Virus record (IMG/VR): IMGVR_UViG_3300011338_000290
Location: 1 to 53,037 of that record
Source of the DNA: a virus
Taxonomy: Duplodnaviria; Caudoviricetes
Length of the DNA: 53,037 bases
Direction: 5' to 3' (one strand)
The position numbers and the translations under genes were made by a program. Of the stretch, positions 1,199 to 52,532 are shown piece after piece. The notes under the pieces are model-generated. The model worked only from the letters and a program-made list of their open reading frames with translations. It was not told the origin of the DNA and ran no database searches. The stretch's first letter is position 1, and each line of letters opens with the position of its first letter.

Positions 1199-1608
1199 GC
1201 TTCAGTAAAGGAGTTACAAAAGAAAAAGGAAAACAAACCCCAAAAGACGCTTGGGATTACATTAGGGGCGAACATGAAATATGCCATTGCTCTTACCCTA
1301 GTTGTCGTAATAGAAAAATAACTAGAGACCAAGATGCTGTGTCTTGGGACATAGTGCATATAGCAAAAGATCAATTTGAATTTAACTTATCCCCATTAGC
1401 AAAACTAGCAGTAGTTGCTAACCCAAAAATTACGGATAGGGGTGAAGAATGGGGAGATTATTTTGTTACTTTATCTATGCATGCGGAATGCGCTGCAGAA
1501 TGGGGTATGCACTTGATTAAAGACGCCCTTGAGAGCCATAATGTAGGGACTAAACTTCGTAAGGAAAAACCTCAAAATGCCATACGTGAACAAACCAAGA
1601 CCATATAA
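1195..1608 (+). CDS. Hypothetical protein, possibly metal-binding
   Basis: ATGA overlap with previous gene; CSYPSC and HAEC motifs. Confidence 0.6.
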   Translation: MSFSKGVTKEKGKQTPKDAWDYIRGEHEICHCSYPSCRNRKITRDQDAVSWDIVHIAKDQFEFNLSPLAKLAVVANPKITDRGEEWGDYFVTLSMHAECAAEWGMHLIKDALESHNVGTKLRKEKPQNAIREQTKTI

Positions 1609-1861
1609 AAAAGAATACGAACAGTATCAGGGTAAACCCGAACAAATAAAGAATAGGGCTAAACGTAACACAGCCCGTGCGGAGCTAATGAAAGAAGGAA
1701 AGGTACACAAGGGTGATGGAAAAGACGTCGATCATGCAAAACCTCTCAGCAAGGGGGGAACAAGTGCTAGGGGTAATCTCAAGGTTAAACCCGCTAGCAA
1801 GAACAGATCATTCAGTAGGAACTCAGACCACTCCGTCAAACGGAATGCAAGCAAGAAATAG
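1577..1861 (+). CDS. Small HNH-type endonuclease
   Basis: DVDHAKPLSKGG...GNL...N motif. Confidence 0.75.
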   Translation: MPYVNKPRPYKKEYEQYQGKPEQIKNRAKRNTARAELMKEGKVHKGDGKDVDHAKPLSKGGTSARGNLKVKPASKNRSFSRNSDHSVKRNASKK

Positions 1862-3239: not shown

Positions 3240-3263
3240 CATTGTCAAAGTCATTGGTATACT
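3236..3263 (+). promoter_or_regulatory. Sigma70-type promoter with palindrome over the -35
   Basis: TTGACA-16-TATACT with TGn extended -10; TTGACATTGTCAA palindrome at 3236-3248. Confidence 0.75.
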
Positions 3264-3291
3264 AGTGGTTCGTAGTTAGAAGGAGCTAAAA

Positions 3292-3699
3292 ATGAGTGAT
3301 GTAGAAGTTATAGCAACAGACAAGCTTGCCGAGATTTATATAAAGATTAGAGACAAGCGAGCTGAGCTAAAGGAGAAGTTCGAGCAACAAGATGAAGAGC
3401 TCAAGGCTCAACAAGACTTGCTTGCAGAAAAAATGCTTGACGTATGTCGTGATAACAATGCTGACAGCATCAAGACACCAGCAGGGACAATTATTCGTAA
3501 AGTGGATACACGGTACTGGACGACTGATTGGGATTCTATGTATCAGTTCATACAAGAACATGATGCCTACCCCCTGCTCGAGAAAAGATTGCATCAAACC
3601 AATCTTAAGCAGTTTCTCGAAGAGAATCCAAATCTGTTACCTGCTGGTTTACAAGCAGACAGTAAATACACCGTGGTCGTTAGAAGGAGCAAAGCATGA
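3292..3699 (+). CDS. Conserved phage replication-module protein (coiled-coil N-terminus)
   Basis: Strong RBS GAAGGAG; coiled coil followed by KTPAGT...DWDSMYQFI...LLEKR pattern. Confidence 0.7.
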   Translation: MSDVEVIATDKLAEIYIKIRDKRAELKEKFEQQDEELKAQQDLLAEKMLDVCRDNNADSIKTPAGTIIRKVDTRYWTTDWDSMYQFIQEHDAYPLLEKRLHQTNLKQFLEENPNLLPAGLQADSKYTVVVRRSKA

Positions 3700-4571
3700 G
3701 TAATATTTCTATTTTTCAGCAACAAAACTCAGTAGCAACTAATCGTGAGGTTAGTGAATTATCTAAAGCCCTAGCGGATAGTGGGGGCGGTACTAGTCGT
3801 CGTATCACCATGGCTAAGGGTGTATTTCGTAGGATCGTAAACGGCAAAGAAGCTGGTAAGGTTAAAGATGGTTTCCTAAATGTCATCATTATTAATGCAC
3901 TACCAAAAGTATCTCGTCAGTTCTACGCTACTGCGTTTGACCCTGATGCAGCCCCAACTCTACCTGACTGCTGGTCTAATTTAGGTGATGTACCTGATCC
4001 CAAAGCCGCTAACGCTCAGTCCACAAGTTGCGCTACCTGCCCACAAAACATTGATGGTTCTGGTACTAATGGCAAAGGTCGTGCATGCCGATTCAATCGT
4101 CGTATTGCCTTGTTGCTTGAAAACGATATGAGTGGTGACATCTACCAATTTAATATTCCTGCCAAGTCTTTATTTGGTAAGGGTGTTGGTAATACGCATC
4201 CGTTTGAGAGTTACACTAAGTTTTTGCCAGCCAATGGCGAGAGCATTGATCGCATCATTACTCAGATTAGCTTTGATGAGAATGAGACCGCTGATGTGCT
4301 GAAGTTTACCCCCGTGCGTCATTTGACCGACGAAGAGATTGATGTAGTCGAAGCAGCTCAAGCTACTCAAGAGTCCAAGCGGGTTATTCAGTTGACTGTA
4401 GCTCAGCAAGACGGTGTTGTTAAGTTGCCACCAGCAGCTAAAGCAGTTCCTGAAGCCGAGGCTGAAGTAGTTGAAGAGCCTGTTGTTAAACGAGCTAAGA
4501 AAGCTGAAGTGCCTCCCGCTGCACCTAAAGCAAAGTTAGCAGATGTCGTTAACGCTTGGTCGGATAACTAA
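3696..4571 (+). CDS. Putative ssDNA-binding/annealing protein with Cys cluster
   Basis: PDCWS..CATCPQN..GRACR motif, Ala/Pro/Lys-rich flexible tail, position in replication module. Confidence 0.55.
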   Translation: MSNISIFQQQNSVATNREVSELSKALADSGGGTSRRITMAKGVFRRIVNGKEAGKVKDGFLNVIIINALPKVSRQFYATAFDPDAAPTLPDCWSNLGDVPDPKAANAQSTSCATCPQNIDGSGTNGKGRACRFNRRIALLLENDMSGDIYQFNIPAKSLFGKGVGNTHPFESYTKFLPANGESIDRIITQISFDENETADVLKFTPVRHLTDEEIDVVEAAQATQESKRVIQLTVAQQDGVVKLPPAAKAVPEAEAEVVEEPVVKRAKKAEVPPAAPKAKLADVVNAWSDN

Positions 4572-4573
4572 TA

Positions 4574-4810
4574 ATGAGCTACGGCTATAGTGCTAAAACT
4601 ATAGAGCTTAACAAGAAAGCTGGTAATACTAGGCTTGGGGTTGCGCTGGGTAGAGCTGCAATAAAAAAGGGTGTATCGGTTGCTGATATAGCAGAGATGT
4701 TAAATGTTAGTCGGCAGACGGTATACAACTGGTTTATTGGGGCATACGATCCTAAGCCGGAGCTATCTAAAAGTATCACCAAGCTTATAGCTAATAGACT
4801 TAGTAAGTAA
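4574..4810 (+). CDS. Cro/CI-type helix-turn-helix DNA-binding protein
   Basis: SVADIAEMLNVSRQTVYNWFIG HTH. Confidence 0.85.
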   Translation: MSYGYSAKTIELNKKAGNTRLGVALGRAAIKKGVSVADIAEMLNVSRQTVYNWFIGAYDPKPELSKSITKLIANRLSK

Positions 4811-4832
4811 TAAAAAGCATCACCGGAAGGTG

Positions 4833-4857
4833 AGGGGGGATTAGTCCCCCCTTTTTT
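4833..4857 (+). terminator. Rho-independent terminator
   Basis: AGGGGGGA-TTAG-TCCCCCCT then T-tract. Confidence 0.75.
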
Positions 4858-4878
4858 CCCCCTAACAACGAGACGAGA

Positions 4879-7719
4879 ATGGCAAATATAGACCTACTAA
4901 ACAGAGTGCAAAGCCCCAATGGGTGGCTGACCGTGCTCGGCTTAAAAGGTAAATCTGCTATACAAGAGCTTGTTCAAACACGAGAAGAATTCGATAAGCA
5001 CGTAGAAGACTTTCTGTCTAAGGGCAGAGATGTTTATTTTGGTGTCGCTAAGTTTGAGACCGACTTAAACCGCAAGAAAGAGAATGTAAAAGACCTCAAA
5101 GCATTTTGGCTTGACTTGGATTGTGGTGAAGCAAAAGCAGAAGTAAATCCAAAAACAAACCGCCCCGATGGTTATATTGACCAAGTAGCAGGTCTTCAAG
5201 CTCTACAAGATTTCTGCAAATTAATCGGATTACCCAAGCCTTTACTTGTTAATTCAGGTAGGGGCATCCATGCGTACTGGCCTCTTACTAAACCTATTAC
5301 TCGGGAAGAATGGGAACCAGTTGCTAATCGTTTGAACGAACTATGCGTATTGCATAACCTTTATGTCGATGCAAGTGTATTTGAGATAGCCCGAGTGCTT
5401 AGAGTGCCCGGAACATTAAACTTTAAAGATAATCCACCTAAACCAGTAGAAGTAATTTCAGATGCACCCGATGTAGATTACGAGGCATTTAAGAACCTTT
5501 TGGGTGTTAAAGAAGCACCAAAGAAACCTACTGCACCCAAAGAGTTAAGTGAGTTACAAAAAGCCATGGCTGCTAATACCGTATCTCGGTTTAGCAAAAT
5601 TATGATTCGCAGTGCAAATGGCGAAGGGTGCGCACAATTACTGTATCAGTATCAAAATCAAGAGTCTGTATCCGAACCTATGTGGTTCAATGCGTTATCC
5701 ATTGCACACCGATGCGTGGACAGAGAGACTGCAATCCATAAGATTTCAGAGAATCACCCTGAATATTCACCCGAGAATACGGAGGAAAAAGCAAGCCATA
5801 CAGCGTTTGCTCAGCGTTGCAGTACGTTTGAGAAAAATAACCCAGGTGGTTGTGAAGGTTGCCAATGGAAGGGACGCATCGGTTCTCCTATTGCATTAGG
5901 CAGAGAAATAGTTAAAGCAGAAGATACAGAAGTCCACGACACACAAGAGATAGAAGATGCGGTTACATACAAAATACCTTCTTTCCCGTTCCCATACTTC
6001 CGTGGGAAGAACGGTGGCATCTACATCACTATTAAAGATGAAGAGGAATCAGAACCAATTTGTGTATACGAACACGATTTGTATGTTGTAAAGCGTATGC
6101 ACGATCCAGACCCTGCGGTTGGAGAACTTGTATTACTACGTTTGCATTTACCTAAAGACGGTGTGCGGGAGTTTACGATTCCGCTTTCTACCGTAGCAGT
6201 AAAAGAAAGATTACGTGAAGCGTTGTCAACAAAAGGCGTCGCTGGGATGCCAAAGCAGATGGATCAGTTGATGGCGTTTTTAATGTTATTTATTAAAGAG
6301 TTGCAATATAAAGGAAGGGCAGAATTAATGAGGACACAATTTGGCTGGGTGGATAAGAACAGCAAGTTTATTATTGGCGATAGAGAGATTAGCAAAGACG
6401 GCACATTCCACAGCCCACCTTCTGCAAACACAAGGCAGTTCACCGAAGTTATGCACCCCATGGGTACGCTAGAGAAATGGAAGGAAGTGTTTAATCTGTA
6501 TGGCGCCCCTGGATTAGAACCCCATGCGTTTGCTGCGCTTACTGCGTTTGGCGCGCCGCTTCTTAAGTTTACTGGTCATAGCGGAGCAATCATAAACCTG
6601 ATTCACAAAGAGTCAGGCACAGGTAAATCTACTGCTTTGTATATGTGTAATAGCGTGTACGGACACCCTGATAGGCTAGCTGGAATTTGGAAAGACACCC
6701 TAGCCGCCAAGATGTTGCATATAGGCATTATGAATAACCTGCCGTTTACGATTGATGAGATTACCAACATTAGCCCTGCCGAGTTTTCTACGCTGGCTTA
6801 TAGCATGTCACAAGGTCGTGGTGCTAATAGGTCTAGGTCAGATAAAAACGAGATGCGTATTAACAACACCACTTGGCAGACCATATCGTTGGCTAGTTCA
6901 AACGCTAGTTTCTACGAGAAGTTAGGGGTGCACAAGAACAGTCCGGATGGTGAGAGCATGCGCCTATTAGAGTATCAGATACATCCAAGCAATATTATCC
7001 CTGTACATGTGGCTAAGGAGATGTTCGACCACCAACTTAAAGAAAATTATGGGCATGCTGGGGACATCTATTGCAGTTACTTAGTTAATAACTTAGAAGA
7101 TACGGTCAGCAACTTGTTGGCTATCCAGCAGAAGATTGATAAAGAGATGCGCCTAACCAGCAAAGAGCGTTTTTGGTCTGCTGCTATTGCTTGTAATATT
7201 ACAGGCGGTTTGGTTGCCCGTATGCTTGGGTTGCATGACTACGATATGAAGGCTATTTATGCTTGGTCTATGCAGATGCTTTCCACAGTACGGCAAGACA
7301 TCGCACCTCCAGCTAATAACGCCGCAGCTATTATTGGTGACTACATTAACCGTAATATTCAAAATATGTTGGTTGTAAACAACGAAGTAGACAAGCGTAC
7401 TAATATGCACTCGGCACCCGTACAGGAGCCAAGAGGCGAGCTAAGGATACGCTACGAACCCGATACTAAGATGATGTACATCGTAGCCAAAGACTTTAAA
7501 AAGGATTGTGTGGAGTCACAAGCCCCATACAAAGAGACTCTTAACGAGCTAAAAGCTCGAGGTGTTTACACAAAAGCCGATACTAAGCAGATGTCCAAAG
7601 GCATGCGTGTTACATCTCCGGGGGTGCATGCATTGTTTTTTGACTGCTCTGTGCCTGATTTTATTGACATGGATGCGGTCGTAGCGCCGATTATCGAAAA
7701 TGTTAGTAGAGAAGATTAG
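4879..7719 (+). CDS. Primase-helicase (AEP/RepB-like primase fused to DUF927-type helicase)
   Basis: WLDLDC, SGRGIHAYW, RVLRVPGT primase motifs; Cys cluster; ESGTGKST Walker A and TIDE Walker B. Confidence 0.85.
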   Translation: MANIDLLNRVQSPNGWLTVLGLKGKSAIQELVQTREEFDKHVEDFLSKGRDVYFGVAKFETDLNRKKENVKDLKAFWLDLDCGEAKAEVNPKTNRPDGYIDQVAGLQALQDFCKLIGLPKPLLVNSGRGIHAYWPLTKPITREEWEPVANRLNELCVLHNLYVDASVFEIARVLRVPGTLNFKDNPPKPVEVISDAPDVDYEAFKNLLGVKEAPKKPTAPKELSELQKAMAANTVSRFSKIMIRSANGEGCAQLLYQYQNQESVSEPMWFNALSIAHRCVDRETAIHKISENHPEYSPENTEEKASHTAFAQRCSTFEKNNPGGCEGCQWKGRIGSPIALGREIVKAEDTEVHDTQEIEDAVTYKIPSFPFPYFRGKNGGIYITIKDEEESEPICVYEHDLYVVKRMHDPDPAVGELVLLRLHLPKDGVREFTIPLSTVAVKERLREALSTKGVAGMPKQMDQLMAFLMLFIKELQYKGRAELMRTQFGWVDKNSKFIIGDREISKDGTFHSPPSANTRQFTEVMHPMGTLEKWKEVFNLYGAPGLEPHAFAALTAFGAPLLKFTGHSGAIINLIHKESGTGKSTALYMCNSVYGHPDRLAGIWKDTLAAKMLHIGIMNNLPFTIDEITNISPAEFSTLAYSMSQGRGANRSRSDKNEMRINNTTWQTISLASSNASFYEKLGVHKNSPDGESMRLLEYQIHPSNIIPVHVAKEMFDHQLKENYGHAGDIYCSYLVNNLEDTVSNLLAIQQKIDKEMRLTSKERFWSAAIACNITGGLVARMLGLHDYDMKAIYAWSMQMLSTVRQDIAPPANNAAAIIGDYINRNIQNMLVVNNEVDKRTNMHSAPVQEPRGELRIRYEPDTKMMYIVAKDFKKDCVESQAPYKETLNELKARGVYTKADTKQMSKGMRVTSPGVHALFFDCSVPDFIDMDAVVAPIIENVSRED

Positions 7720-7905: not shown

Positions 7906-7985
7906 CACAGAACAGCTCGTCTGTTTCTCCTCGGAAGTTAGCTCCTTCCACACTCTTTGCCCCCGCCTCGTGCGGGGGTTTTTTA
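7906..7985 (+). ncRNA. Candidate three-hairpin small regulatory RNA
   Basis: Lies between the promoter and terminator; no ORF; hairpins with CTCGT and TTAGCTC loops; two CTCCT anti-SD tracts. Confidence 0.45.
7959..7985 (+). terminator. Rho-independent terminator at the convergence of replication and late operons
   Basis: CCCCCGC-CTCGT-GCGGGGG then T-tract. Confidence 0.85.
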
Positions 7986-10900
7986 TTTGTACTGCGGAGA
8001 ACGAGTGCCTTCTACTAATGGGTAGACAAATGGAGCTTCTTTATCTGAGACAGATAACCCTTGATATGCTTTGCCACGACGCTCAGCACGAGACTGCAAC
8101 GACTTACTAACTGTTTCACCATTAATGGCTAGCATTGCATTCTTAGTATTAAATTTATCTATTTCTTCTAATATCTTGTCAATCTTGTCGTCATCATCCT
8201 GACGCACTGCAATATCTAAACGATTTAATATATTTTGTTTTTCTCTGTTTATCTCTGTCACTATCTGTTTAGCCATAAAGTTAGCCTTTTGTACTTGCGC
8301 CACTTCGGTGCTTCCAAAGCCTAAAGTTTGTGCAAGCAGTTTGCCTGTTGTGTAGAACTCTGGGTTCATCAACTCATCACCTTTAGTAGTAGTTGCGCCT
8401 TCGCTCTTTAGCCTCATTGAGGTTAAACCACCTCTAAGCCACGCTGGAGAAAGTTTTTCAAAAGCCCTACTAACCTGCCCATTATTCCAATCGTCGTAAG
8501 CACCTGCAAAATTTGCACCCACGCTACCAATTGGACCAGTCCAACTAAACGCAAAGTTTATAAATGCTTGACGAGAAGTTTCTGCAGGAGCATCACTTCT
8601 AAACCACAACCCATCTAAAGAAGTAGAAGTACCTACGTTTAAATCGGTATAAGCAGATATTGGACCCATTTCAACACCACGAGATAACGTAGCAGCTTGC
8701 TCTTCAGTTAAGTTAAAGAAGTTAGCTAGACTGCTATCGGGACCAAAGTAGCTAGGAATAAACGAATTTCTAAACCATAAGTCTAAGCTGCGTTTACCAA
8801 GGGGATTACCTTCGTCGTCTTCGTCGTAGTCTTCGTCTTCTTCATCTCGAAGTAGTTCACGCATACCTTCTGCCATACCCATAATAAAGCTATATAAAGG
8901 GAAACCTGTAACACCAGCAAATAGACCAGTCATACCCAGTGTGCCAAAGAACTTAATAGCCGCTTCTTTCTTTTCTTCTTTATTCAATAATGGCAGCATG
9001 CCGTAGAAGTTACGTACTAAATACGATGTCATCTGTAGCGGGTAGGTCAAGAACTGGAATGCTAAGCGTCCAGCAGCACTCTTCATTGGGGGCGGTTTGT
9101 TGTATTGAGTGTAGTTAAATAAAGCATCGTAGGTTAGCTTTAGGGCTCTTTTAGTAGCTGCATCAAACGCAGCCTTGTCGTCCATACCCTTTTGCTTTGC
9201 GTCTGCGTAAGCTAGTTCAAAACTGGACATGAACATAATTTCACGAGAAATACGCTCAGCGTGGTGGAATGCGCCACCCATTAAATTAAATGTAAACCTA
9301 GTCCCTCTTTCTACTAAACCTTGATAACGAGTACTGGGGGCTGCAGCCATTGCCGTCATATCCCCTGCATAGGTAGACATAAATATATCTTTGTCATTGG
9401 CAAAGTTCCAAGCGTCTTTTAGTACTTTTCTGTACGCTAAATTTTTGTGTTCGTTTACGTACTTAGAGTCATTAATAGATGGCTGACCCCACGAAGTTAC
9501 TACGTTTCCGTTCTCGTCTTTTTTAGTTGTGCCAAATTTATTCCATAAAGCACCATACCTAGCAGCAGTTGCAGTAGCTTTGCCAATACCAAACTCAGCC
9601 CCAAGGGTAGGTAAGCCAACAATCGGTAGCTGGGTCATCTGTACTAATGCAGATTTAGGAGAAGTCAGAAGCCAATAGAACACAAACTTATTACCAATGG
9701 AAGCAACTTGATCCCAATCAAGCCCTTCTTCAGGCACTGTGGGAGTAATTTCATTAATAGCTCGGTTACTAACTTCTCTAATAATAGTAGCTAGCTTTAG
9801 CTTATCCGGATTTTGCTGTATCTCTGCATATGCAGCAGCTATGCCATTGCGAATCTTATCTGAGTACTTTAGTCGAGCTAGCTGATTAGCAGCGGTATGC
9901 TGGCTAACAATAAAGTTGCGGATTGCATCGGCACTAAAACCAGTCTTGCCTTGGCGGTGTACAAACTTACGACGGATGTCCTTATCTGGTAGAGTCATCA
10001 AGTACATTTGATAGATATTGTCTTTAACAGCATCAATATCCGACATCTTGTTTTTATCTAACATTGCAAAGATTTCTTTAAGCATATCGCTAGATTCAAT
10101 ATGTTTTTCTCTTAGTTTGCGAATGTCATTTCCAATATCTATGTCGCCATCGGCAATCATCTGGTCTTTAGTACGCTTGTCCCCAGCTTTATTAAGTTCA
10201 GCAACACGGGCTTCAATGGCGTTGTTACGAGCAACTTCCCCTTCAAACATATAGAACTCGCCACTCTTGCCCTTGCCTACGCTAAACCAGAAGTTACCAT
10301 AACGCATTAATGGGAAATAAACCTCAAGTTGTTTAGCTTCTTGGAAAGTTTTAGTAATAGCCGCAATTAATTTGCCTTTTGGAGTAGACGCATCGTTAAT
10401 ATCTCCAGGTACGTTAGAAGCCGCAATCTTTTCTTTTAGCAATTGCTCATGCGTGTCAAAGGTTTTTTTGTAGCTATCTTTAGCCATCTTATATATGGCA
10501 TGCCCTTCGCCTTTTCCAAATTTACCTAACTGCTCCCAACCACCCATGGTGTATTTCTCACCAGTAACAGGGTTGTTATAAGCGCCGCCTTCATACACTA
10601 ATTTAATTGCTGCAGTGCGCTCAGTTCTTTGTTTTTTAAGGTTAGGTAAAGTTTTAGGGTCCGTAGACGGATTAAGAATGTCATTTTCAATGCGCTGTAA
10701 CTTAGGATCATTCTTTATAGCGGTTGCCGCATCGGGGTGTTTAGTAGGGTCTACCTCTAACAAAGTAGATGCGTTAATTAAATCCGCAAGTATATTGCCG
10801 CCTTCTTCGTATTTTTCATTAAAGTTAATCCAAGCAGGAGTTTTTTCAGCAAGCTCACGGATCATTTGCACCCGCATGCCAGCCATGTCGTCTACAGCGT

Positions 10901-13900
10901 TGTTAATGACTTTTAGGTTATTAATTTTGTCCCCAGCTATGCGGGTAATGTCTTCTGTTGTAAAAGCTTTTAACGCAAGCTTTAATTTGGTAACACTTAT
11001 AGCACCATAAATAGCCTTCATCAAACGAATAGCATCGCTGGCATTTCTAACCTGCATTATTAACTCGCCAATTGAACCGTTTAATGTGGAGTTTCTATTA
11101 GATAATCGAATCTTTCTAAGCAAAGTTTCTACAAGTTTTAATTGCTTAGGTGGTTTAGGTGCTTTTGGCGGTGCAGGTTGTTTTGCTTTGGCTGCTACTG
11201 GTTCCCCAGGAACCGTTACTTCTGGCATTGGTGCAGCTAGCAGCTTATTTGTAACAATAATCAAATCTTGGAGAGCAGAAGTATGCTTCTCGTCCATACT
11301 AAACAACTGACGTATGCTTTGTACAAATTTATTAAATAGCCTATCAACAAAATTAGGCGGAGCACCTGCAAGTACACCTGGAGAAAGAAGTAAAAATTCT
11401 TGCATAGCAGGCAAAGACATGCCGTAAGCCACAAACTCTTTAACGTCAGTAAAAGCGTCATTAGGTATTTCTAGCATTTCTGGGGTGAGTAAACCTAAAT
11501 TGCCAGTCTCCAAAGCTTGAGCAAAGAGAGCATCATAGTTATCTTTTGCCCGTATCATCAAAGCCATAAGCTCTGCCACTGGACGCAAAGAATTAGGAAT
11601 AGGTTTCTTTGCTTCTCTTAATTCTAGATAGGCATTAATACGGGCAACGGTTGCAGCGTGTAAAGCTTCGTGTAACACAACAGTATTGTTAATACCGCCG
11701 CTACGCATTACATAAATAGTATTTCTGTCAGGTACATATAAACCTGCTGCTCCCATCATTTTGTCTCGTAGGAATGCAGTAGGCATATCGTCTGCACTAT
11801 CTACTACAACAAACTTAACTCCGTTAAGGAAAGGGAGTAACCGTCTAGCTAGTATTTTTTCAAAGGGGTTGCCGTTATTAGCAATCCAACTTACTGCGCT
11901 TCGTGCGTTATTGTATTTTTCAAAGACAGTGTTATCCTGCCCATTAGTAGATTCTGACATTTGGGCACGGCTAGGTGCGCCTATTCTTTGCTTAGCCTCG
12001 TATCTTAGTTTACCTAACTCACGTTCTTGCGGGTCAGCTTTCTCTAATGCTGCAGTTGCTCTAGTACCTGCGGTTTTTTTCTTTTGGTTGGGGTCAACGG
12101 ATAAACCATATGCAACCGATAGAGCATCTATGCGTTCTTGCCTTAAACCATACAAAATATCCTGAGCTTCTTTCTCACTGGCAGAGCGTTCAAGAATAGC
12201 GGCTTCGTCAACTGTTTGAGCTAAAGTTTTTTCGGCTTTAGCAATTGCATTGATAGCATCCCGTCCAGAAGCTATTTGCTGTTTTTTAGTCGCAGCGGCA
12301 GCGGCTATTTGTTCTGGAGTTTTTGCAGCGGCTGGTCTGCCACGAGGTTTGCCTGTTTTGACTGGTGGTGTTGTTACATCCTCGGTAGCTTCTGTATCAA
12401 CAGGGAGTTTGTCATATATTGTCTTAAACTTTTCACCTGTTAATTCCTCAAAACGTTTAGCTCTTCTTGGCTCACTTTCTCTTAAAAAAGCATCTAACTC
12501 AGCTCTAATTTTATCTACCTTTAATTTTGTTGGGCGATTAGGATAAGTGTCTTGTGACTTTCTTTCTGCTCTCTCAGCATCAGCTAGTCTTCGTTTTATC
12601 TTGTTAAGTGTTTGTAAATCTTCTTCCGCAGTAGGCTCTACAGAAGTAGTGGTAGGTGCACCCATACCAGCCGCAACTTGTTTTTGCCGTAAGCTTTCTG
12701 TAGCGGCAGCGGTTGCTTGCTCGTCGGTTAAGTTGTATTTAACTTTTAAGTCTGCAGCTAGTGTATTGAGTTCAGTTCCTTCTCCGCCTCCAACAGCAGT
12801 AGTAGTTGTGCCAGCTGCTGCCAGGTCTCCTCCGGTAGTGTCAATAGCTCCCGTGTCGGTTTCGCTTGGTTTGCCAGGCACAGAAACGCCTGGTTGATCT
12901 GCTCCACCGATAGTTGATTCAGTTCCATCTAATAGCCCTCCTTGCAAAATAGCATCGCCTGCAACGGCGTAGGCTTCTTGTTCAGTATATGGTTGATTTG
13001 TATCTGGATTAACTGAAGCCTTTAGCTTCTCAACAGTCTCATTAAACTGCTGACCTAAATTGTCTAAAGCACCAGGGGCATTAAGCTTATCAAGGATTTT
13101 CTTTTGATCTTCAACGGCTTTAGCTTCTGCTTCTCTTTTAGCAATTGTAGATGGCAAGCGCTCATAAGCCTCACGTCCACCAAATGCTGCTGTCTCTAAT
13201 AAACTAGTTGGACCTTCACCAACGGCTTCCATAAGGACTTGCCCAGGCTTTTTAATCTCTCCTTCGGTAGCAAGTTGAGCAGCTGCTTCACCACCAGCTC
13301 CGCTAATTACTTGTGCGGCGGGTTGGGCTACACCGATATTGACCGCTTCTTTTGCTACTTGGTTCTTTATTACTGTCTTAGGCACAAGCAATTTACCAGC
13401 TAATCCAGCAGCAGCCGTATCTACAGCGCCAATAATAGAAGCCCTTGTCATTGCATGCTCGTAAGCTTTAGCAAATAAAGTTGGATCATTTAACGCTTTA
13501 TTAACAGCGGCAGGGTCTTTTACATTTACCCCTTGCTCTTGGAAGTATTCTGTAATACCCGAAGATAACTCACTAGCAAAGCTAGTACTACCCATAGCCA
13601 TTGCACCAACTCTAGGATTACGGGTTACTGCGCCTAATACAAGTGCAGGTACTAGTTGTGGGACGCTCTCTAAGGACACGCTAGCCATGACACCCAAAGG
13701 ATCAACTTGGAACGCATCAAATGCTTGCCGTGCCGTCTTTACATCAGACAAAGCTTCTATCGTAGGTCTTTTTCTATATTGAGCAGCTTCAGCCTGGGTC
13801 TCCATTAGCTTTTGTTGAGATTGAGCTTGAGCGCCCTGTAACTCTTTAAGTCTAGCTTCTGCCGCTTCTGGTGTTAGTGGTCTGCCAAGAGGGTCTGTAG

Positions 13901-14330
13901 CCTTACCTTCTCGGATTAAATTGATTTCGTTTTGAATGTTGGCAACTTGAACACCAGGCAATATTCCTTTTGCAGCTGCATAGCCAGACTTTAACGGGTC
14001 AGTTATACGTTGTAAGAACGGTACTTCTCTTTCGTACTTTGCAGTCTCTTCTGCTAATTGTTTCTTTTGTTGCTCAGTTAACCCTGTGCTTGGTTGTACT
14101 GTAGGTTCAGCTTGGGTTGTTACTTCTTCTGGGCTAAGTATGGGTGCAGTTACAGAAGCAGGGGCGGCTTTAGGTTTATCTTTAGAAAGAAGATGAGTCA
14201 ATATCTCAGTATCAGGAACGCCTGCTTCCCTAGCCCCAGCTAAGTTGTACTTGTATTTTGAGGCAAGATAATTGTTAATCTCAGCATCGCTAAGACCCGC
14301 CTTTCTTGCGCCCTCAACATCATATGCCAT
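7983..14330 (-). CDS. Giant internal virion/DNA-ejection protein (polyvalent type) with zincin-like HExxH domain
   Basis: 2115 aa; last late gene; VVLHEALHAAT motif with downstream EFVAY; duplicated N-terminal Y.(V/L).GAR.AG..D.EI motif. Confidence 0.7.
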   Translation of the reverse strand: MAYDVEGARKAGLSDAEINNYLASKYKYNLAGAREAGVPDTEILTHLLSKDKPKAAPASVTAPILSPEEVTTQAEPTVQPSTGLTEQQKKQLAEETAKYEREVPFLQRITDPLKSGYAAAKGILPGVQVANIQNEINLIREGKATDPLGRPLTPEAAEARLKELQGAQAQSQQKLMETQAEAAQYRKRPTIEALSDVKTARQAFDAFQVDPLGVMASVSLESVPQLVPALVLGAVTRNPRVGAMAMGSTSFASELSSGITEYFQEQGVNVKDPAAVNKALNDPTLFAKAYEHAMTRASIIGAVDTAAAGLAGKLLVPKTVIKNQVAKEAVNIGVAQPAAQVISGAGGEAAAQLATEGEIKKPGQVLMEAVGEGPTSLLETAAFGGREAYERLPSTIAKREAEAKAVEDQKKILDKLNAPGALDNLGQQFNETVEKLKASVNPDTNQPYTEQEAYAVAGDAILQGGLLDGTESTIGGADQPGVSVPGKPSETDTGAIDTTGGDLAAAGTTTTAVGGGEGTELNTLAADLKVKYNLTDEQATAAATESLRQKQVAAGMGAPTTTSVEPTAEEDLQTLNKIKRRLADAERAERKSQDTYPNRPTKLKVDKIRAELDAFLRESEPRRAKRFEELTGEKFKTIYDKLPVDTEATEDVTTPPVKTGKPRGRPAAAKTPEQIAAAAATKKQQIASGRDAINAIAKAEKTLAQTVDEAAILERSASEKEAQDILYGLRQERIDALSVAYGLSVDPNQKKKTAGTRATAALEKADPQERELGKLRYEAKQRIGAPSRAQMSESTNGQDNTVFEKYNNARSAVSWIANNGNPFEKILARRLLPFLNGVKFVVVDSADDMPTAFLRDKMMGAAGLYVPDRNTIYVMRSGGINNTVVLHEALHAATVARINAYLELREAKKPIPNSLRPVAELMALMIRAKDNYDALFAQALETGNLGLLTPEMLEIPNDAFTDVKEFVAYGMSLPAMQEFLLLSPGVLAGAPPNFVDRLFNKFVQSIRQLFSMDEKHTSALQDLIIVTNKLLAAPMPEVTVPGEPVAAKAKQPAPPKAPKPPKQLKLVETLLRKIRLSNRNSTLNGSIGELIMQVRNASDAIRLMKAIYGAISVTKLKLALKAFTTEDITRIAGDKINNLKVINNAVDDMAGMRVQMIRELAEKTPAWINFNEKYEEGGNILADLINASTLLEVDPTKHPDAATAIKNDPKLQRIENDILNPSTDPKTLPNLKKQRTERTAAIKLVYEGGAYNNPVTGEKYTMGGWEQLGKFGKGEGHAIYKMAKDSYKKTFDTHEQLLKEKIAASNVPGDINDASTPKGKLIAAITKTFQEAKQLEVYFPLMRYGNFWFSVGKGKSGEFYMFEGEVARNNAIEARVAELNKAGDKRTKDQMIADGDIDIGNDIRKLREKHIESSDMLKEIFAMLDKNKMSDIDAVKDNIYQMYLMTLPDKDIRRKFVHRQGKTGFSADAIRNFIVSQHTAANQLARLKYSDKIRNGIAAAYAEIQQNPDKLKLATIIREVSNRAINEITPTVPEEGLDWDQVASIGNKFVFYWLLTSPKSALVQMTQLPIVGLPTLGAEFGIGKATATAARYGALWNKFGTTKKDENGNVVTSWGQPSINDSKYVNEHKNLAYRKVLKDAWNFANDKDIFMSTYAGDMTAMAAAPSTRYQGLVERGTRFTFNLMGGAFHHAERISREIMFMSSFELAYADAKQKGMDDKAAFDAATKRALKLTYDALFNYTQYNKPPPMKSAAGRLAFQFLTYPLQMTSYLVRNFYGMLPLLNKEEKKEAAIKFFGTLGMTGLFAGVTGFPLYSFIMGMAEGMRELLRDEEDEDYDEDDEGNPLGKRSLDLWFRNSFIPSYFGPDSSLANFFNLTEEQAATLSRGVEMGPISAYTDLNVGTSTSLDGLWFRSDAPAETSRQAFINFAFSWTGPIGSVGANFAGAYDDWNNGQVSRAFEKLSPAWLRGGLTSMRLKSEGATTTKGDELMNPEFYTTGKLLAQTLGFGSTEVAQVQKANFMAKQIVTEINREKQNILNRLDIAVRQDDDDKIDKILEEIDKFNTKNAMLAINGETVSKSLQSRAERRGKAYQGLSVSDKEAPFVYPLVEGTRSPQYK

Positions 14331-46576: not shown

Positions 46577-48112
46577 TTATACGTTGTAGTACCCTTTGTG
46601 CTTACGTGATCTAAACGCCATTGGCTCGTCTTCATAATCAGATTCCAATGATACAAAGCCACCACGCCTGAATCTTAACAGGGCTTGTGACATGCTGTCT
46701 ACTAAGTCATCATGCTCTCCACTAGGAAAAGATGCAACTTCTTCTATAAGTTCTTCCGCCCAGTGTGTTTGAGGAACCCAGACTTTTCCAGAAGCAAATA
46801 TGTCTGCTACCGCATTTAGACGAGCAATCTTGTCATTGCCCTTGCTGGGGGTGAACTCTTGGACAGGAATACCCATTGCCCTAAGCTCAAATATTAAGGG
46901 AGACCCTGCCGCCTTGGCTTCGACAATCATAGCGTCTGGTTCCCACTCTTTATATTCTTCATAAGCCTTTTGTTTTAATTCTGGAAACTCCATACGGCGT
47001 TTAAATGCATTTAATAGGATGATATTAGCGCCAGGAACCCCTACCGCATTGTCCCGATAGAACACACCCCACGTTGTACAGGCTGAATAGTCTGCCCTTT
47101 CTGACTTTAAGAACGCCGTATCCCACGACTGGATGACAAATTCACAGCTAGGAGGGCTATCTTGGTCCCAAATCTGCCACCATTCCCGTTTGACGATTGC
47201 CGAGACGTCAGAAGTAGGTGCTTGCATGTACTGAGCCTGCCATTTACCCGCTGGAAGCTCATTTTTGAGGGCTAAAAGCTCTGTTTGGCTCCAAAATTCA
47301 GGCCAAAGTGGCTGTCCATCGTCAAAAATAGCTGGAAACTCAATAAGTTTCCATCCCTCGCCCTCTCTTTGAGCATCTGCTTTGATAACTTGACCCGTTA
47401 AGTCCTTCTTAGACCACCGGGTCATCACAATAATGATCGCCCCACCCGGTTGCAGACGCTGTCTTGGACCCGATGTGTACCATTCGTAGGTCTTATCGTA
47501 GATTTCTGGGTTAGTTTCGGCTATTGTGGCTTCTTGTTCTGAATGCGGGTCGTCAATAATGAGTATATCTGCGCCCTTACCAGTGACCGCTCCACCAACA
47601 CCGATTGCAAAGTAATCTCCACCCTTATTAGTTGCCCAACGGCCTGCGGCTTTGCTATCTGCTTGGAGCCCAACTCCCGGAAATATTGACTTGTATATGT
47701 CTGAGTCGACCAAATTACGGACTTTGCGTCCGAAGCCCACAGCAAGCTCAGCGGTATGGGAGGTTTGAATAACTTTCTTCTGAGGAAATTTGCCCAGAAA
47801 CCAAGCAGGAAGGAGGTAACTAGCAAATTCAGATTTTGTATGCCTAGGGGGCATATTGATAATAAGTCTCTTACACGTTCCATTTGCTACCTCCTCAAAT
47901 GCGGCTGCCATATCCTTGTGGTGGCGACCTTCTATGAACACAGGCCAGACCTTCTTTACAAACGACATGAAGCGAATCTGCGCCAACTCTTTGTTTTGAA
48001 GCTTTTCTAATAACTCTAAGTCCTCTGCGAGCTTTAGCTGCTCCGCTTCAGACAACATAGGAAGAATCTTGGGTATATCTTTAAGGGATATGGTATCGAG
48101 GAGGCTACTCAT
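46577..48112 (-). CDS. terL: Terminase large subunit
   Basis: NMPPRHTKS Walker A, IIDDP Walker B, SWDTA and HDDLVDS nuclease motifs. Confidence 0.95.
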   Translation of the reverse strand: MSSLLDTISLKDIPKILPMLSEAEQLKLAEDLELLEKLQNKELAQIRFMSFVKKVWPVFIEGRHHKDMAAAFEEVANGTCKRLIINMPPRHTKSEFASYLLPAWFLGKFPQKKVIQTSHTAELAVGFGRKVRNLVDSDIYKSIFPGVGLQADSKAAGRWATNKGGDYFAIGVGGAVTGKGADILIIDDPHSEQEATIAETNPEIYDKTYEWYTSGPRQRLQPGGAIIIVMTRWSKKDLTGQVIKADAQREGEGWKLIEFPAIFDDGQPLWPEFWSQTELLALKNELPAGKWQAQYMQAPTSDVSAIVKREWWQIWDQDSPPSCEFVIQSWDTAFLKSERADYSACTTWGVFYRDNAVGVPGANIILLNAFKRRMEFPELKQKAYEEYKEWEPDAMIVEAKAAGSPLIFELRAMGIPVQEFTPSKGNDKIARLNAVADIFASGKVWVPQTHWAEELIEEVASFPSGEHDDLVDSMSQALLRFRRGGFVSLESDYEDEPMAFRSRKHKGYYNV

Positions 48113-48755: not shown

Positions 48756-48795
48756 TGCAGGGCGTAATACAAATAAATGCGCTCCAGTTTCCCGC

Positions 48796-48825
48796 AATAT
48801 AACACAACAAAAATAAAAGGAGCAA
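48796..48825 (-). promoter_or_regulatory. Putative late-operon promoter
   Basis: TTGCTC-18-TATATT with TGTGT before the -10, as in the early promoters. Confidence 0.5.
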
Positions 48826-48916: not shown

Positions 48917-48934
48917 ATACCCCCCGGGGGGTAT
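48917..48934. repeat. Perfect 18-bp palindrome
   Basis: ATACCCCCCGGGGGGTAT. Confidence 0.9.
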
Positions 48935-49397: not shown

Positions 49398-49925
49398 ATG
49401 GATCAAGTATTTGATGTTGCTGATTTAATTACTGCTATCGAGCAAGCCCGTGTTAATGTTGCTGAGGGTTTGCGTGGCGCTTATGGCGCTAAGGTTGCAT
49501 ATGCTGGTTTGCTCAATCAAAAATGGGCAAGTTTTGACTGGTTTGAACTTAATCACAATGATTCAAGTGATGAGGGCAAAGCAGTAAGGAAAGAGAAAGA
49601 GGCTTTTTACGAAGTCTTAAAGGGTGAGCAACACTCAAACCCCCACAAGATTTGGGGTGACATTCGTAAATACGCTAAGACCGATCGCTATGGCAAGCCA
49701 GTAGTTGATGGCGAGCAAGGCGAGGGTGGCGAGGGTGGCGAGCAAGGCAGTGACAACGCCAAGCATAATCGTTCACCCCAGTTGCGTAACCTTGAGGAAC
49801 TTACCGCATTATTCAAGTTCAATCGTCGCCAAGATTCATTGAGTGACGAACTCAAGCAATGCCAAGCATATATCGCCAAGGCATTGGAATCGTTAGGTGT
49901 CAATGTAACAATGATTGGCGACTAA
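49398..49925 (+). CDS. Early protein of unknown function, paralog A
   Basis: AAGGA RBS; clear paralog of 51243-51758. Confidence 0.85.
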   Translation: MDQVFDVADLITAIEQARVNVAEGLRGAYGAKVAYAGLLNQKWASFDWFELNHNDSSDEGKAVRKEKEAFYEVLKGEQHSNPHKIWGDIRKYAKTDRYGKPVVDGEQGEGGEGGEQGSDNAKHNRSPQLRNLEELTALFKFNRRQDSLSDELKQCQAYIAKALESLGVNVTMIGD

Positions 49926-49986: not shown

Positions 49987-50199
49987 ATGATTAAGCCAAT
50001 ATTTACCCATGACTGTGATACCTGTAAATTTTTAGGTCATGTTTTAACAGTAAATGGTAATGCTGATGTTTACTACTCATGTGACTCAAGAGAAAATTAT
50101 CGTAACCTGATTTTTAGGTATAGCGATGAACCCGCAGATTACAGTCATGTCGGAACTGAACGAACTAAGTATTTATTTGATTTTGAATTTTGTTTATAA
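49987..50199 (+). CDS. Small early protein
   Basis: AGGT RBS; HDCDTCKFLG and RYSDEPADY motifs. Confidence 0.7.
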   Translation: MIKPIFTHDCDTCKFLGHVLTVNGNADVYYSCDSRENYRNLIFRYSDEPADYSHVGTERTKYLFDFEFCL

Positions 50200-50224
50200 G
50201 CCACCCATGCGGTGGCTTTTTTTT
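50198..50224 (+). terminator. Rho-independent terminator
   Basis: AAGCCACC-CATGC-GGTGGCTT then T-tract. Confidence 0.88.
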
Positions 50225-50404
50225 GCCCTTGCCCTAACAATGTTAGGGCTTTTTTGTTTCCATCATTTTCCAAAAATGATAGTTCTTAGAAGGGTGGTAG
50301 TCCTAACCCGATTTTTTCCAAGTTTTACCTCGTTGGAAATGATAGTTCTTAGAAGAGTGGTAGCCCATAAGGCAGTCCTAACAATGTTAGGCTTCTTGCA
50401 AAAC

Positions 50405-50780
50405 TTTTCTTATAATAGAAGCCTTTGAAATCAAGGACTTGCGTGTATTATAAGAAAACCAAAAACAAAATCTTACAATATAAAAGTCTTTGTAATCAAG
50501 GACTTGCAGGGGTTTTTGGGGGTATTATAAGAAAACTGAGAAAATTGAGTGAGCAGGGTCTCGAACGAGGTCTTCACGCAGTGCATTTCTTACATTAGCA
50601 AAGGCAAATCCTCTGGGGGTATATAATTTTTTTTATTTTCTTATTTTCTTATATTATCTATTTTTCTCCTCTCCAAGCCTTATACCTATTCACTTTTATA
50701 TTATAAGAAATATCGTAAGAAAAACCTCCACTTTTCTTATATTACCCCCATTTTTCTTATTTTGATTTCTTATATTAAGT
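50405..50780. other. AT-rich block with IHF-consensus sites and TTTCTTAT repeats (origin- or packaging-like)
   Basis: AATCAAGGACTTG at 50429-50441 and 50494-50506; about ten TTTCTTA(T)/(A)TAAGAAA copies in both orientations. Confidence 0.55.
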
Positions 50781-50791
50781 TTCCACGCACC

Positions 50792-50820
50792 TTGAATATT
50801 CTCTTATTTTGTGTTATAAT
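50792..50820 (+). promoter_or_regulatory. Early sigma70 promoter
   Basis: TTGAAT-17-TATAAT with extended -10 TG. Confidence 0.85.
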
Positions 50821-50850
50821 GTAATCTCAATACAACGAAAGGAATATAAA

Positions 50851-51048
50851 ATGCAAATGACAGACAAAATAAAAAAAGTAATCGAGTGGGGTTTTCAGTA
50901 TGACTCTGAGAAAAATGTGTTCTTCCGTTTTGCACCTGAAAATTATGTCGAAGTGTGGAGGGACGATATTTCTTCTGATTGGATTGTGTTTTATTTAGAT
51001 GGACAACCAACGCATGATTACTTCATCAAATGGGAGTTGTTTGCCTAA
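50851..51048 (+). CDS. Small early protein
   Basis: AAAGGA RBS; start set at MQMTDK, downstream of the promoter. Confidence 0.7.
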   Translation: MQMTDKIKKVIEWGFQYDSEKNVFFRFAPENYVEVWRDDISSDWIVFYLDGQPTHDYFIKWELFA

Positions 51049-51109
51049 ATGGGGAGAGCCTAACAATGTTAGGTTCATTCCTAGAAATTAAAAAATCTAG
51101 ACAGAATAC

Positions 51110-51138
51110 TTGATTTATCCCTTATTTTGTGTTATACT
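51110..51138 (+). promoter_or_regulatory. Early sigma70 promoter
   Basis: TTGATT-17-TATACT with extended -10 TG; shares CTTATTTTGTGTTATA with the 50792 promoter. Confidence 0.85.
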
Positions 51139-51242
51139 ATACTCATAGTAAAAAATAAGAAATGCAGTTGCAGTAGGAGTCAGTTAGGTTCTCCAACCAA
51201 CCTAACAATGTTAGGCAGTATCCAAAACAAGGAGTATTAAAC

Positions 51243-51758
51243 ATGGAATTTATCGCTAATCAAGATGTAGAAGTAATCGTATCCCAAAAGCGTCAAGGTG
51301 CAATTGACGCACAGGCTAGCACTTATGGTGCTAATGTGGAATACGCAGGGGCATTGAACTTGAAGTTCGAGTTCGATTGGTTCGAGTTGCAACACAACGA
51401 CAGTTCGGACGAAGGCAAGGCAGTCCGCAAAGAAAAGACCTTGTTCTTTGAAGGCTTGAAAGAAATCGGGCATTCCAACCCGTCCAAAGTTTGGAAAGAT
51501 GTGCGAGATTACGGCAGAGAAAACCGCTACGGCAAACCCGTTGTGCCTACCGCAGAAGGTGCAGATGGTGAGTCCGAGTCCGAAGGGGACGCAAAGCATA
51601 ATCGTTCCCCTGAGTTGCGGAACATGGAGGAGTTGCTAGCCCTCTATAAGTTCAACCGCAGACAGGAGTCCCTCTCCCCCAAGATCACCAAGGTGCAACA
51701 AAAGATTGGTGAAGCCTTGCAAGAGATGGGAGTTGATCTCCATATGATCGCAGACTAA
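51243..51758 (+). CDS. Early protein of unknown function, paralog B
   Basis: AAGGAG RBS; clear paralog of 49398-49925. Confidence 0.85.
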   Translation: MEFIANQDVEVIVSQKRQGAIDAQASTYGANVEYAGALNLKFEFDWFELQHNDSSDEGKAVRKEKTLFFEGLKEIGHSNPSKVWKDVRDYGRENRYGKPVVPTAEGADGESESEGDAKHNRSPELRNMEELLALYKFNRRQESLSPKITKVQQKIGEALQEMGVDLHMIAD

Positions 51759-51776
51759 TTCTGCCCAACCCCAACC

Positions 51777-51800
51777 AACCCTGCTACGGCAGGGTTTTTT
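51777..51800 (+). terminator. Rho-independent terminator
   Basis: AACCCTGC-TACG-GCAGGGTT then T-tract. Confidence 0.9.
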
Positions 51801-51941
51801 ATTTGCCCACGACCTAACAATGTTAGGTCAGACTTTTTGTCATTCGGCTCTCGCCGAAATGACAGTTCCGAGAAGGGTGGTAGCCCATGGGGAATTCCCT
51901 AAAAGTGCGTGGGAACGAGGGTTCAATTCTAGCCAAAAAAC

Positions 51942-51970
51942 TTGATCTGGTCAGTAATTTGTGTTATAAT
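51942..51970 (+). promoter_or_regulatory. Early sigma70 promoter
   Basis: TTGATC-17-TATAAT with extended -10 TG. Confidence 0.85.
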
Positions 51971-52055
51971 ATAAGATATATATGAGAATAAAGATTCGCC
52001 CTCATTTTATTTTTTGCAACCCCCTAACAATGTTAGGTCTAACAAGGAGAAGTGT

Positions 52056-52151
52056 ATGAAGTTTATGGATAGCGACATCTTTGCAGTTGCTTTAATTGTG
52101 TTCACAGTTTTGTTTGTGTTGGTTCATGTCATTTTGTATATAACTAAATAG
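52056..52151 (+). CDS. 31-aa single-pass membrane peptide (absent from ORF track)
   Basis: AAGGAG RBS; MKFMDSDIFAVALIVFTVLFVLVHVILYITK. Confidence 0.65.
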   Translation: MKFMDSDIFAVALIVFTVLFVLVHVILYITK

Positions 52152-52328: not shown

Positions 52329-52532
52329 ATGTTATATGGCTTTGATTGTGAATGTGGCTTGGAGATACCGATTGGCAGACTTGACCTAGGGTATACGACA
52401 TGCCTAAAGTGTGGCGACATTGAGGCAAAGCGTGTAAAGCATATTGTGCAAATCCCATATTCCAAGGGTGCGTATCAATATATCCACAACCCACAAGACT
52501 TATGTTTTACCAACCCAAAGAGGACAACATGA
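52329..52532 (+). CDS. Small zinc-finger early protein
   Basis: CECG...CLKCG; AGGAG RBS. Confidence 0.75.
   Translation: MLYGFDCECGLEIPIGRLDLGYTTCLKCGDIEAKRVKHIVQIPYSKGAYQYIHNPQDLCFTNPKRTT

Follow-up and report, generated by a model that had tools for sequence, protein, structure and literature searches.

What is a 30-base box doing in three places on one strand of a phage genome, when each copy folds up with a different partner? The stretch of DNA that raises this question, called the window below, is the complete IMG/VR virus record IMGVR_UViG_3300011338_000290 (Duplodnaviria; Caudoviricetes). It is linear, 53,037 bp long, and estimated by CheckV to be 84% complete. In every copy, the opening 3-9 bases of the box serve as the 3' arm of a stem whose 5' arm and loop vary by copy. 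The answer given here is tentative: the boxes may be cis-acting DNA signals of a replication-origin module, used as a folded strand in this clade. This is possible, and it is the favoured reading, but it stops well short of being probable. The evidence does favour an origin-associated DNA signal over a new class of RNA.

A degenerate version of the 30-mer matches three times in the window, only on the + strand. The number expected by chance is zero, as no match turned up in any of 100 shuffles. Allowing up to 3 mismatches across the whole record still gives 3 forward and 0 reverse matches, and no fourth copy. The initial annotation of this DNA had proposed a three-copy element, and that is confirmed. 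The copies are:

50274..50303, + strand: box 1 (AAATGATAGTTCTTAGAAGGGTGGTAGTCC), covariance-model match 50256-50311 at 79.6 bits
50337..50366, + strand: box 2, 63 nt past box 1, repeat family D6, covariance model 42 bits
51857..51886, + strand: box 3, after the A2 paralogue and its terminator, covariance model 52.3 bits

The tandem boxes 1 and 2 are not identical to each other. The centre of the box resembles a Shine-Dalgarno sequence (AGAAGGGTGG, AGGAGGGTGG).

The same annotation called the element undescribed, which agrees with the searches: no Rfam family matches, and the box strings are absent from the searchable literature. Rfam 15 at gathering thresholds gives 0 matches over the whole window. 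At E <= 10 over 50150-52100, the sole match that touches a box is CRISPR-DR46, which scores 20.9 bits (E = 3.9) where its gathering score is 50. A tRNA and tmRNA scan of the window finds none.

The hairpins with their differing 5' arms are there as first described, for all three copies:

50262-50269 / loop 50270-50272 / 50273-50280, + strand: copy 1 stem-loop (ATCATTTT / CCA / AAAATGAT), of which the 3' arm is the start of box 1
50315-50321 / 50333-50339, + strand: copy 2 weak stem-loop (TTTCCAA / 11 nt / TTGGAAA)
51837-51848 / 51849-51852 / 51853-51865, + strand: copy 3 stem-loop with 12 pairs, one bulged A and loop TCTC

Copy 2 also has a smaller alternative hairpin, TCGTT-GGA-AATGA. The hairpin of copy 3 is the only one clearly stabler than its shuffles (z -3.28 as RNA, -4.42 as DNA).

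It had also been claimed that a change in the box is compensated in the other arm: ATCAT pairs with ATGAT in copy 1, and GTCAT with ATGAC in copy 3. This compensation is real and holds across relatives, which are referred to below by L and G numbers. The copy 1 pair is A-T in most of them, G-C in L044 and G.T in L058. The closing pair of copy 1 is T-A in some relatives and C-G in L007 and L049. L004, L041 and L045 have a copy 2 stem of TTCCCA...TGGGAA in place of TTTCCAA...TTGGAAA. Such double changes are seen within one paralogous position, and also between the copies of a single genome.

The initial annotation suggested a covariance model as a check. Run on the relatives, a model of a 9-bp stem plus the box does find further homologues with a co-varying stem: 56 full copies (51 distinct rows) from 30 sources. 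The pair at the Y position is G-C in 24, A-U in 17, G-U in 2 and something else in 5. The loop-closing pair is U-A 13 times, C-G 7 times, U-G 6 times and other 3 times; the third stem pair is A-U in 38, G-U in 6 and other in 2. Over the whole model alignment 88.6% of cells are paired, against 28.6-69.0% with the partner column slid. These figures overstate independence and favour the stem, since the alignment was made to fit the structure and its sequences are relatives of one another. The proposed combination of a constant part with a variable stem is borne out in this clade, where the stem is directly seen to co-vary.

Stems measure 5-12 bp and loops 2-26 nt. The loops are mostly AT-rich, and their position relative to the box varies by copy. 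Base pairing within a single strand explains an arm distance of 3-26 nt better than symmetric protein contacts do, since a dimeric protein on duplex DNA would not tolerate variable arm spacing. The co-varying stem suggests that, for this clade at least, the signal acts as a single strand in its folded form. Which strand folds is ambiguous by wobble asymmetry (60 copies, with G.T allowed 20 times and A.C 28 times).

RNAalifold was given 18 copy-1/2 units and 9/14 distinct copy-3 units. It returns only local hairpins, a GUGG-loop-CCAU mini-stem, and a GUUCY/RGAAC pairing in copy 3 with little co-variation. The partner motif of that last pairing is GGAACGAGGG, which occurs inverted in L023 and is for that reason more likely a duplex site than an RNA partner.

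The place of the boxes in the genome is as regular as their sequence. The features around them are:

49398..49925, + strand: gene A1, 175 aa, first early gene, precedes boxes 1 and 2
50198-50218 (50198..50226 as a feature), + strand: intrinsic terminator upstream of the copy 1/2 module
50233..50247: palindrome CCTAACA-A-TGTTAGG before box 1; its flanks (50231-50249) and a T run make it terminator-like
50377..50391: palindrome separating box 2 from the iteron array
50392..50800: AT-rich non-coding array, putative origin, TTCTTAYAWT-type repeats in both orientations
51243..51758, + strand: gene A2, 171 aa, paralogue of A1, repeat family D7, precedes box 3
51777-51796 (51777..51804 as a feature), + strand: intrinsic terminator between gene A2 and the copy 3 module
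51813..51827: palindrome preceding box 3; its flanks (51811-51829) make it terminator-like

Each box group is preceded by an intrinsic terminator and then by a terminator-like palindrome. The palindrome CCTAACAATGTTAGG stands upstream of copies 1 and 3, at 26 and 29 nt, and downstream of copy 2, at 10 nt. The adjacency of box and palindrome that was initially reported therefore stands for all three copies, but it is not exclusive, as six other palindromes have no box. The perfect 7-1-7 form CCTAACA-A/T-TGTTAGG occurs at nine places: 49159, 49921, 50233, 50377, 51059, 51201, 51813, 52023 and 52322. It is also found between early-gene promoters and ribosome-binding sites. Its halves fit the integron attC core pattern RYYYAAC / GTTRRRY, which is probably a coincidence.

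A terminator function for the box hairpins themselves was considered and rejected. They are followed by AGTTCYNAG and not by a T run, and the terminator scan does not list them.

The array after box 2 contains repeat families D4, D10, D11, D15 and D17 as well as I7-I9 and I17-I19. Inside it are two 28-nt direct repeats, 50415-50442 and 50480-50507. From its make-up and position, the array may be the replication origin.

How much of this is kept in other phages? A pattern scan locates 12 box-bearing stretches on 7 IMG/VR contigs and 26 such stretches on 21 metagenome contigs. The same scan has 0 matches in 185,579 representative prokaryote genomes (596 Gb). A profile search of the box gives 118 matches, which come down to 60 distinct flanked copies.

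Among close relatives with enough DNA, all have the tandem pair, 62, 63 or 65 nt apart, as well as the copy after A2. The sequence between the boxes diverges by point mutation in these relatives, not by replacement. The lineage L023/L060, with a single A gene, has the tandem pair alone. A complete relative, G001 (65,223 bp), has exactly three boxes on one strand, and its next nhmmer match is at E = 0.088. The more distant complete relatives G005 and G006 have two boxes each, on the same strand. The conservation of the box, its low copy number and its strand specificity are direct observations. Two contigs, L046 and L098, stop at a box, which might hint at a genome end or pac site, but an assembly can also break at repeats such as these. 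In G005, which is complete with terminal repeats, the distance between the boxes and the contig end is 7.6 kb.

The wider family was anchored on the terminase gene terL, using the best 80 of at least 597 related IMG/VR stretches. Linkage was counted over 30 terL-anchored loci with at least 3 kb of early side. An A-like gene is detectable in 12 of the 30, and 11 of these 12 have an early-strand box near the palindrome. Where no A-like gene was detected, 2 of 18 loci have such a box (L111 and L145), and in both the open reading frame (ORF) before the box ends like protein A. L098, outside the 30-locus set, is a third such case. On the opposite strand the counts are 1 of the 12 and 0 of the 18.

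Across distant lineages the order of the module is constant: A-like gene, terminator or terminators, box or boxes, palindrome, iterons. The tandem boxes adjoin the iteron array in the window and in L022, L023, L056-L059, L110, L125, L148, L101, L106, L097, L105, L145 and L111, as judged by eye; for L124 only the surrounding context was viewed. The iterons of distant relatives are half-palindromes of the AATGTTAGA type. Given that they are half-sites, the same protein probably reads both palindromes and iterons.

Protein A itself belongs to a family with at least 268 environmental relatives, all of them unnamed. It has no Pfam or PHROG match and no tblastn match in 50,697 isolate phage records. 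Its AlphaFold model (pLDDT 78.5) is all-helical and consists of two domains with an acidic Gly/Glu linker between them. Foldseek finds no match to this fold at E <= 0.001; the best VIA match, with Z 5.8, is to helical proteins, and the Atlas clusters are 'hypothetical' only. Two of its motifs, AKHNRSPELRN and KFNRRQ, never vary.

All that distant lineages keep of the box is the core (A/G)TGAYAGTTC (or ...GTGAC), and the 3' half is lineage-specific. The spacing there is 11, 49, 73, 74, 82, 135 or 168 nt. An overlapping hairpin is present in L110 and in copy 2 of L125, and has shifted to just upstream in copy 1 of L125 and copy 2 of L097.

A core that stays while the hairpin is lost or moves is what might be expected of a duplex-DNA site for a phage regulator or initiator. 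The reader would then be protein A or whatever binds the palindrome, and the complementary arm would be accessory or a leftover. The window-clade spacing of 62-65 nt amounts to about six helical turns, and a box follows each A paralogue downstream. L101 has two TGATAGT repeats 11 nt apart, which is the geometry of tandem winged-helix sites. Such a site would not readily account for a stem that co-varies between copies in one genome and across relatives. Arms 3-26 nt apart suit base pairing and not a dimer, and in the wider family the box spacing is anything from 11 to 168 nt. A plain duplex site is a serious candidate, though a doubtful one.

Could the element act as RNA? A + strand transcript, made by terminator read-through or from an unrecognised promoter, might serve in processing or stability, as a protein-binding decoy, or as a regulatory RNA. 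The orientation is that of all the early genes, and the stem co-varies through G-U intermediates (16 G-U or U-G cells on the + strand). Copy 3 folds well (z -3.28), and the box has its Shine-Dalgarno-like centre. Against all this, two terminator-like hairpins with T runs lie directly upstream, and there is no conserved promoter geometry. With loop lengths from 3 to 26 nt, no -35/-10 arrangement upstream of the boxes is constant. The wobble test favours neither strand, hairpins 1 and 2 are no stabler than shuffles as RNA, and the CRISPR-DR46 match, in place of an Rfam family, is far below its gathering score. A k-mer complement search finds only chance-level matches of 9-11 bases in the phage. 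An RNA role is thus rather unlikely. The decoy or guide RNA of the initial annotation is likewise not supported, facing upstream terminators, no promoter geometry, no phage target beyond chance, and no counterpart in the 596 Gb of prokaryote genomes.

The comparison with transcripts covers the contigs of three RNA-labelled runs. These contained 5-8% of the words sampled, and two of the runs are probably DNA. In metatranscriptome run X20 the cover is 0 over 50295-50439 and about 1 over 51745-51889, in assembled contigs, which is not evidence of absence.

The same run shows something else over the array. Its summed contig depth is 160.8 in the bin 50585-50729, against 0-36 elsewhere. This could be an abundant RNA, or it could be unrelated AT-rich contigs.

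The weak CRISPR-DR46 match and the constant 62-65 nt spacing, which holds while the intervening sequence differs among the window, L022 and L023, bring up another RNA possibility. The boxes might form a CRISPR-like mini-array, with two repeats around a spacer and a third repeat standing alone, or a decoy of the same kind as the type III antitoxins (ToxI). This is very improbable. The tandem copies differ, what lies between them changes by point mutation in close relatives, and the spacing is not constant in the wider family. Stems that differ by copy are unlike repeats read by one Cas6-type enzyme. The 185,579 prokaryote genomes have 0 matches, in a collection possibly without the true host, and 17 tandem-pattern matches in prokaryote genomes are all unrelated repeats (best nhmmer E = 0.044).

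Since an ATG opens the box, it could also be the start of a small protein, M(I/T)V(L/P)RR(V/G)VA..., with its start codon masked by the hairpin. In the window, L022 and L023 no stop codon interrupts the frame between box 1 and box 2. However, there is no Shine-Dalgarno sequence upstream, whereas real genes here have AAGGAG at normal spacing. A spacing of 62 or 65 nt (L056, L057, L059, L044) breaks the frame, and in L148, L106, L124, L105 and L048 the ATG is replaced by GTG, CTG or ATA. Substitutions have no third-position bias, and past 10 residues the peptide is not conserved. This leaves the small protein scarcely credible, and close to refuted.

A promoter is the next thing to consider. The boxes lie just past terminators and point at the genes downstream. 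Three copies with one orientation fall within the first 3 kb of the early region, which resembles the three early promoters of phage N4. They could be hairpin promoters of that type, used by an injected polymerase, or start sites for a redirected host polymerase; the tandem pair might then activate the origin. In phage T7, the primary origin is activated by tandem promoters. Factors directed at a polymerase do seem to be encoded, namely a weak DksA/TraR-type match and, in a relative, a protein like the C-terminal domain of the RNA polymerase alpha subunit (alpha-CTD).

Strong sigma-70-type promoters already serve the same genes, though. They are at 50792-50820, 51110-51138 and 51942-51970, all downstream of boxes 1 and 2, with extended -10 elements TGTGTTATAAT/TGTGTTATACT. 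A sigma-70 scan finds these three TTGAnn-17-TATAAT/TATACT promoters and nothing at the boxes, where the best sigma-70 reading fits 7-8 of 12 positions with inconsistent spacers. A loop that varies from 2 to 26 nt, and in position, is unlike the fixed N4 geometry.

A polymerase is missing too. The T7-like family PF00940 was not found in three relatives, one of them complete; the controls also gave none, so this is a weak point. The largest virion protein is:

7983-14330, - strand: internal virion protein, 2115 aa, with a zincin-like HEALH motif near residue 886

It has this HEALH motif but no polymerase motifs, and no PDB sequence match at E <= 1. A search with its C-terminal 840 aa brings up PLxRFG/DarB-like proteins from 33 phage records, and of the 30 listed none is annotated as an RNA polymerase. 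The N4-style reading fails for want of a polymerase, and a promoter of either sort is improbable, although a very divergent virion RNA polymerase may exist.

The promoters have some features of their own. The family TTGAnn-17-TATAAT/TATACT has an unusual conserved extended -10 context, TTTTGTGTTATAAT, and is also found on the - strand at 48795-48812, ahead of the leftward structural operon. Some 20-30 nt upstream of the -35 of the 51942 promoter is the motif GGAACGAGGG (51925-51941), conserved in relatives. It stands inverted (CTCGTTC) at the equivalent place in L023 (2706-2716), and is probably a duplex binding site for a regulator.

The region before copy 3 also varies among relatives. In some of them short tandem repeats precede or replace the palindrome there. 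L022 (3069-3123) has seven of ACACCTAAC, while L002, L034, L057 and L059 have T-tract repeats of the type CATTTGCC(C), with a phasing of about 8-11 bp that suggests bent DNA.

That brings us back to the origin module. A DNA-level signal is suggested by the insulation of the boxes from upstream transcription, by their invariant place beside the iterons, by their linkage to the A gene, and by their being few and strand-specific. The constant position relative to terminators, palindromes and iterons is itself directly observed. Of the roles that the initial annotation offered, a priming signal is the one that best suits this constant place next to an iteron array, and it may hold.

The mechanism could work as follows. 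When the AT-rich iteron region opens, the + strand would fold. The stem-loop would then display the invariant tail (A/G)TGAYAGTTC and some 15-20 lineage-specific bases to a phage replication protein, which would prime or load the replisome at the box. Candidate readers are protein A, encoded just upstream, and the following protein:

4879-7719: primase-helicase, 946 aa, with PHROG and Pfam matches

The PHROG matches are to DNA primase, to DNA polymerase/primase (N-terminal part) and to DNA primase/helicase; the Pfam match is DUF927. Box 3 could have arisen by duplication of the A gene together with the terminator-palindrome-box unit downstream of it, and have been retained as a secondary site.

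Several observations weigh against this account. Hairpins 1 and 2 do not stand out from shuffles in the RNA folds (z +0.24 and -0.25), and in the DNA folds they do so only marginally (z -2.0 and -1.8). Copy 2 of L126, L124, and copy 1 of L097 have a box without an overlapping hairpin, so the fold is not essential to its function in the family. That 50392-50800 is an origin is something we infer, and the GC-skew turn near 48-50 kb adds nothing to it, as it coincides with the switch in gene direction. The boxes are all on one strand, and ssiA and ssiB, the RSF1010 sites discussed at the end, are on opposite ones. Box 3, which is equally conserved, is found 1.1 kb past the iteron array; as a co-duplicated secondary site it is loosely explained. 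No protein partner was identified, protein A being without a Pfam or PHROG match, a clear fold match or a named relative.

The claim that a protein reads the folded strand as a start signal can take two forms. The boxes would be ssi-type sites for the phage primase-helicase, or N4-like extruded hairpin promoters for an unrecognised polymerase or a remodelled host polymerase. Taken together these two forms are on the unlikely side.

As for the phage itself, its sequence occurs as DNA in freshwater and riverine metagenomes. Among 50,697 isolate phage records, neither the 4-kb region nor the 57-nt copy 3 unit has a blastn match. The structural genes are on the - strand, with the large terminase at 46577-48112, the portal, a head protein, tail fibres and the 2115-aa internal protein. 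Early genes are on the + strand from about 49.2 kb, and resume past the missing part as exonuclease, helicase and primase-helicase (527-7719).

By terminase, the nearest isolates (49-57% amino acid identity) are DSL-LC04, the Pelagibacter phages HTVC027P and HTVC023P, and Synechococcus and Planktothrix phages. DSL-LC04 has the closest terminase, and its gene layout near the terminase differs. The PLxRFG/'DarB-like' giants that share the C-terminus of the internal protein are from podoviruses of about 60 kb (Erwinia PEp14, Klebsiella SopranoGao, Pseudomonas Skulduggery and others).

A GC palindrome, ATACCCCCCGGGGGGTAT, stands at 48917-48934, where the genes diverge between A1 and the small-terminase side, and is kept in L022 and L023. 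It might terminate transcription from both directions or have to do with packaging.

The complete relative G001 also encodes an AAA/VWA pair, the alpha-CTD-like protein and a DNA polymerase of family A, but no RNA polymerase was found there. Some of its small early proteins (L062:6401-6895, L065:4527-4724) are apparently directed at the host RNA polymerase. One, of 164 aa, has an RNA polymerase alpha C-terminal domain (E = 9e-10). Another, of 66 aa, has a sub-threshold helix-turn-helix like sigma-70 region 4. The counterpart of window ORF 52329-52532, assigned by nucleotide match, has a weak DksA/TraR-type zinc-finger match, below the cut-off.

What it all means depends on the reading. Plain binding sites would make this an ordinary origin annotation. 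Folded-strand start signals, on the other hand, would provide a handle on how replication starts in podovirus-like phages of about 60 kb. In either of the two folded-strand forms, they would be a structure-specific start signal previously undescribed for a large uncultured freshwater phage family. The module is common to that abundant family (at least 597 terL-related IMG/VR stretches, and 268 relatives of protein A). In addition, (A/G)TGAYAGTTC beside CTAACA-N-TGTTAG palindromes is a practical marker of the early or origin region in metagenomic phage contigs.

Elements of this kind are not without parallels. Accessory boxes are known at iteron-type origins, like the DnaA boxes beside P1 oriR, and boxes A and B of SPP1 oriL and oriR. 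There too, one to three boxes that are not iterons edge an iteron or AT-rich array, next to a gene of the same module. The box described here differs in being 25-30 nt long with a co-varying stem, and it does not look like a DnaA box, which it fits, by eye, at 4-6 of 9 positions.

Lambda nut (boxA plus the boxB hairpin) and the ops element of RfaH are signals downstream of promoters and upstream of the terminators that they help overcome. They likewise combine a linear motif with a hairpin in the sense strand of an early operon, and GGTGGTAGC resembles the ops core GGCGGTAGC. The boxes here are downstream of terminators, however, and come without a promoter; among the ORFs scanned there is no NusG-like or N-like gene.

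The three early promoters of N4 are hairpins that mix conserved stem bases with freely variable ones that need only pair (PMC4496689). Their geometry is a 5-7 bp stem, a 3-nt loop and a GC-rich heptamer centred at -11 (PMC4496689). Shared with the boxes are the three co-oriented copies at the start of the early region and the small hairpin with conserved and free stem bases. The differences are in the loops, which are 2-26 nt long and AT-rich here, and in the polymerase, as no virion or other phage RNA polymerase was found.

In RSF1010, ssiA and ssiB are 40-nt sites with a hairpin (nt 7-27), located within an iteron origin by an AT-rich stretch (PMC8567376). The RepB' primase, of the archaeo-eukaryotic type, binds six bases 5' of the hairpin, and the primer starts at T32, 3' of the hairpin (PMC8567376). 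There is no sequence similarity to the boxes. The sites ssiA and ssiB are inverted, on opposite strands and occur once each, while the boxes come in two or three copies on one strand. What is conserved in the boxes is the 3' arm and 3' tail, unlike the 5' side that RepB' binds. An ssi site is a hairpin with a conserved single-stranded flank in an origin; here, in the window's clade, a co-varying hairpin is followed by a conserved 3' tail, the place beside an iteron array is constant, the origin is putative, and the hairpin is missing in some distant lineages. What the two have in common is a long (about 40 nt), sequence-specific hairpin with a single-stranded flank, beside iterons and an AT-rich stretch, in an element that encodes its own primase. 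By analogy, this makes ssiA and ssiB the closest mechanistic precedent for the boxes. As folded-strand start signals, the boxes would add to the IncQ plasmids a second case of long structured priming sites.

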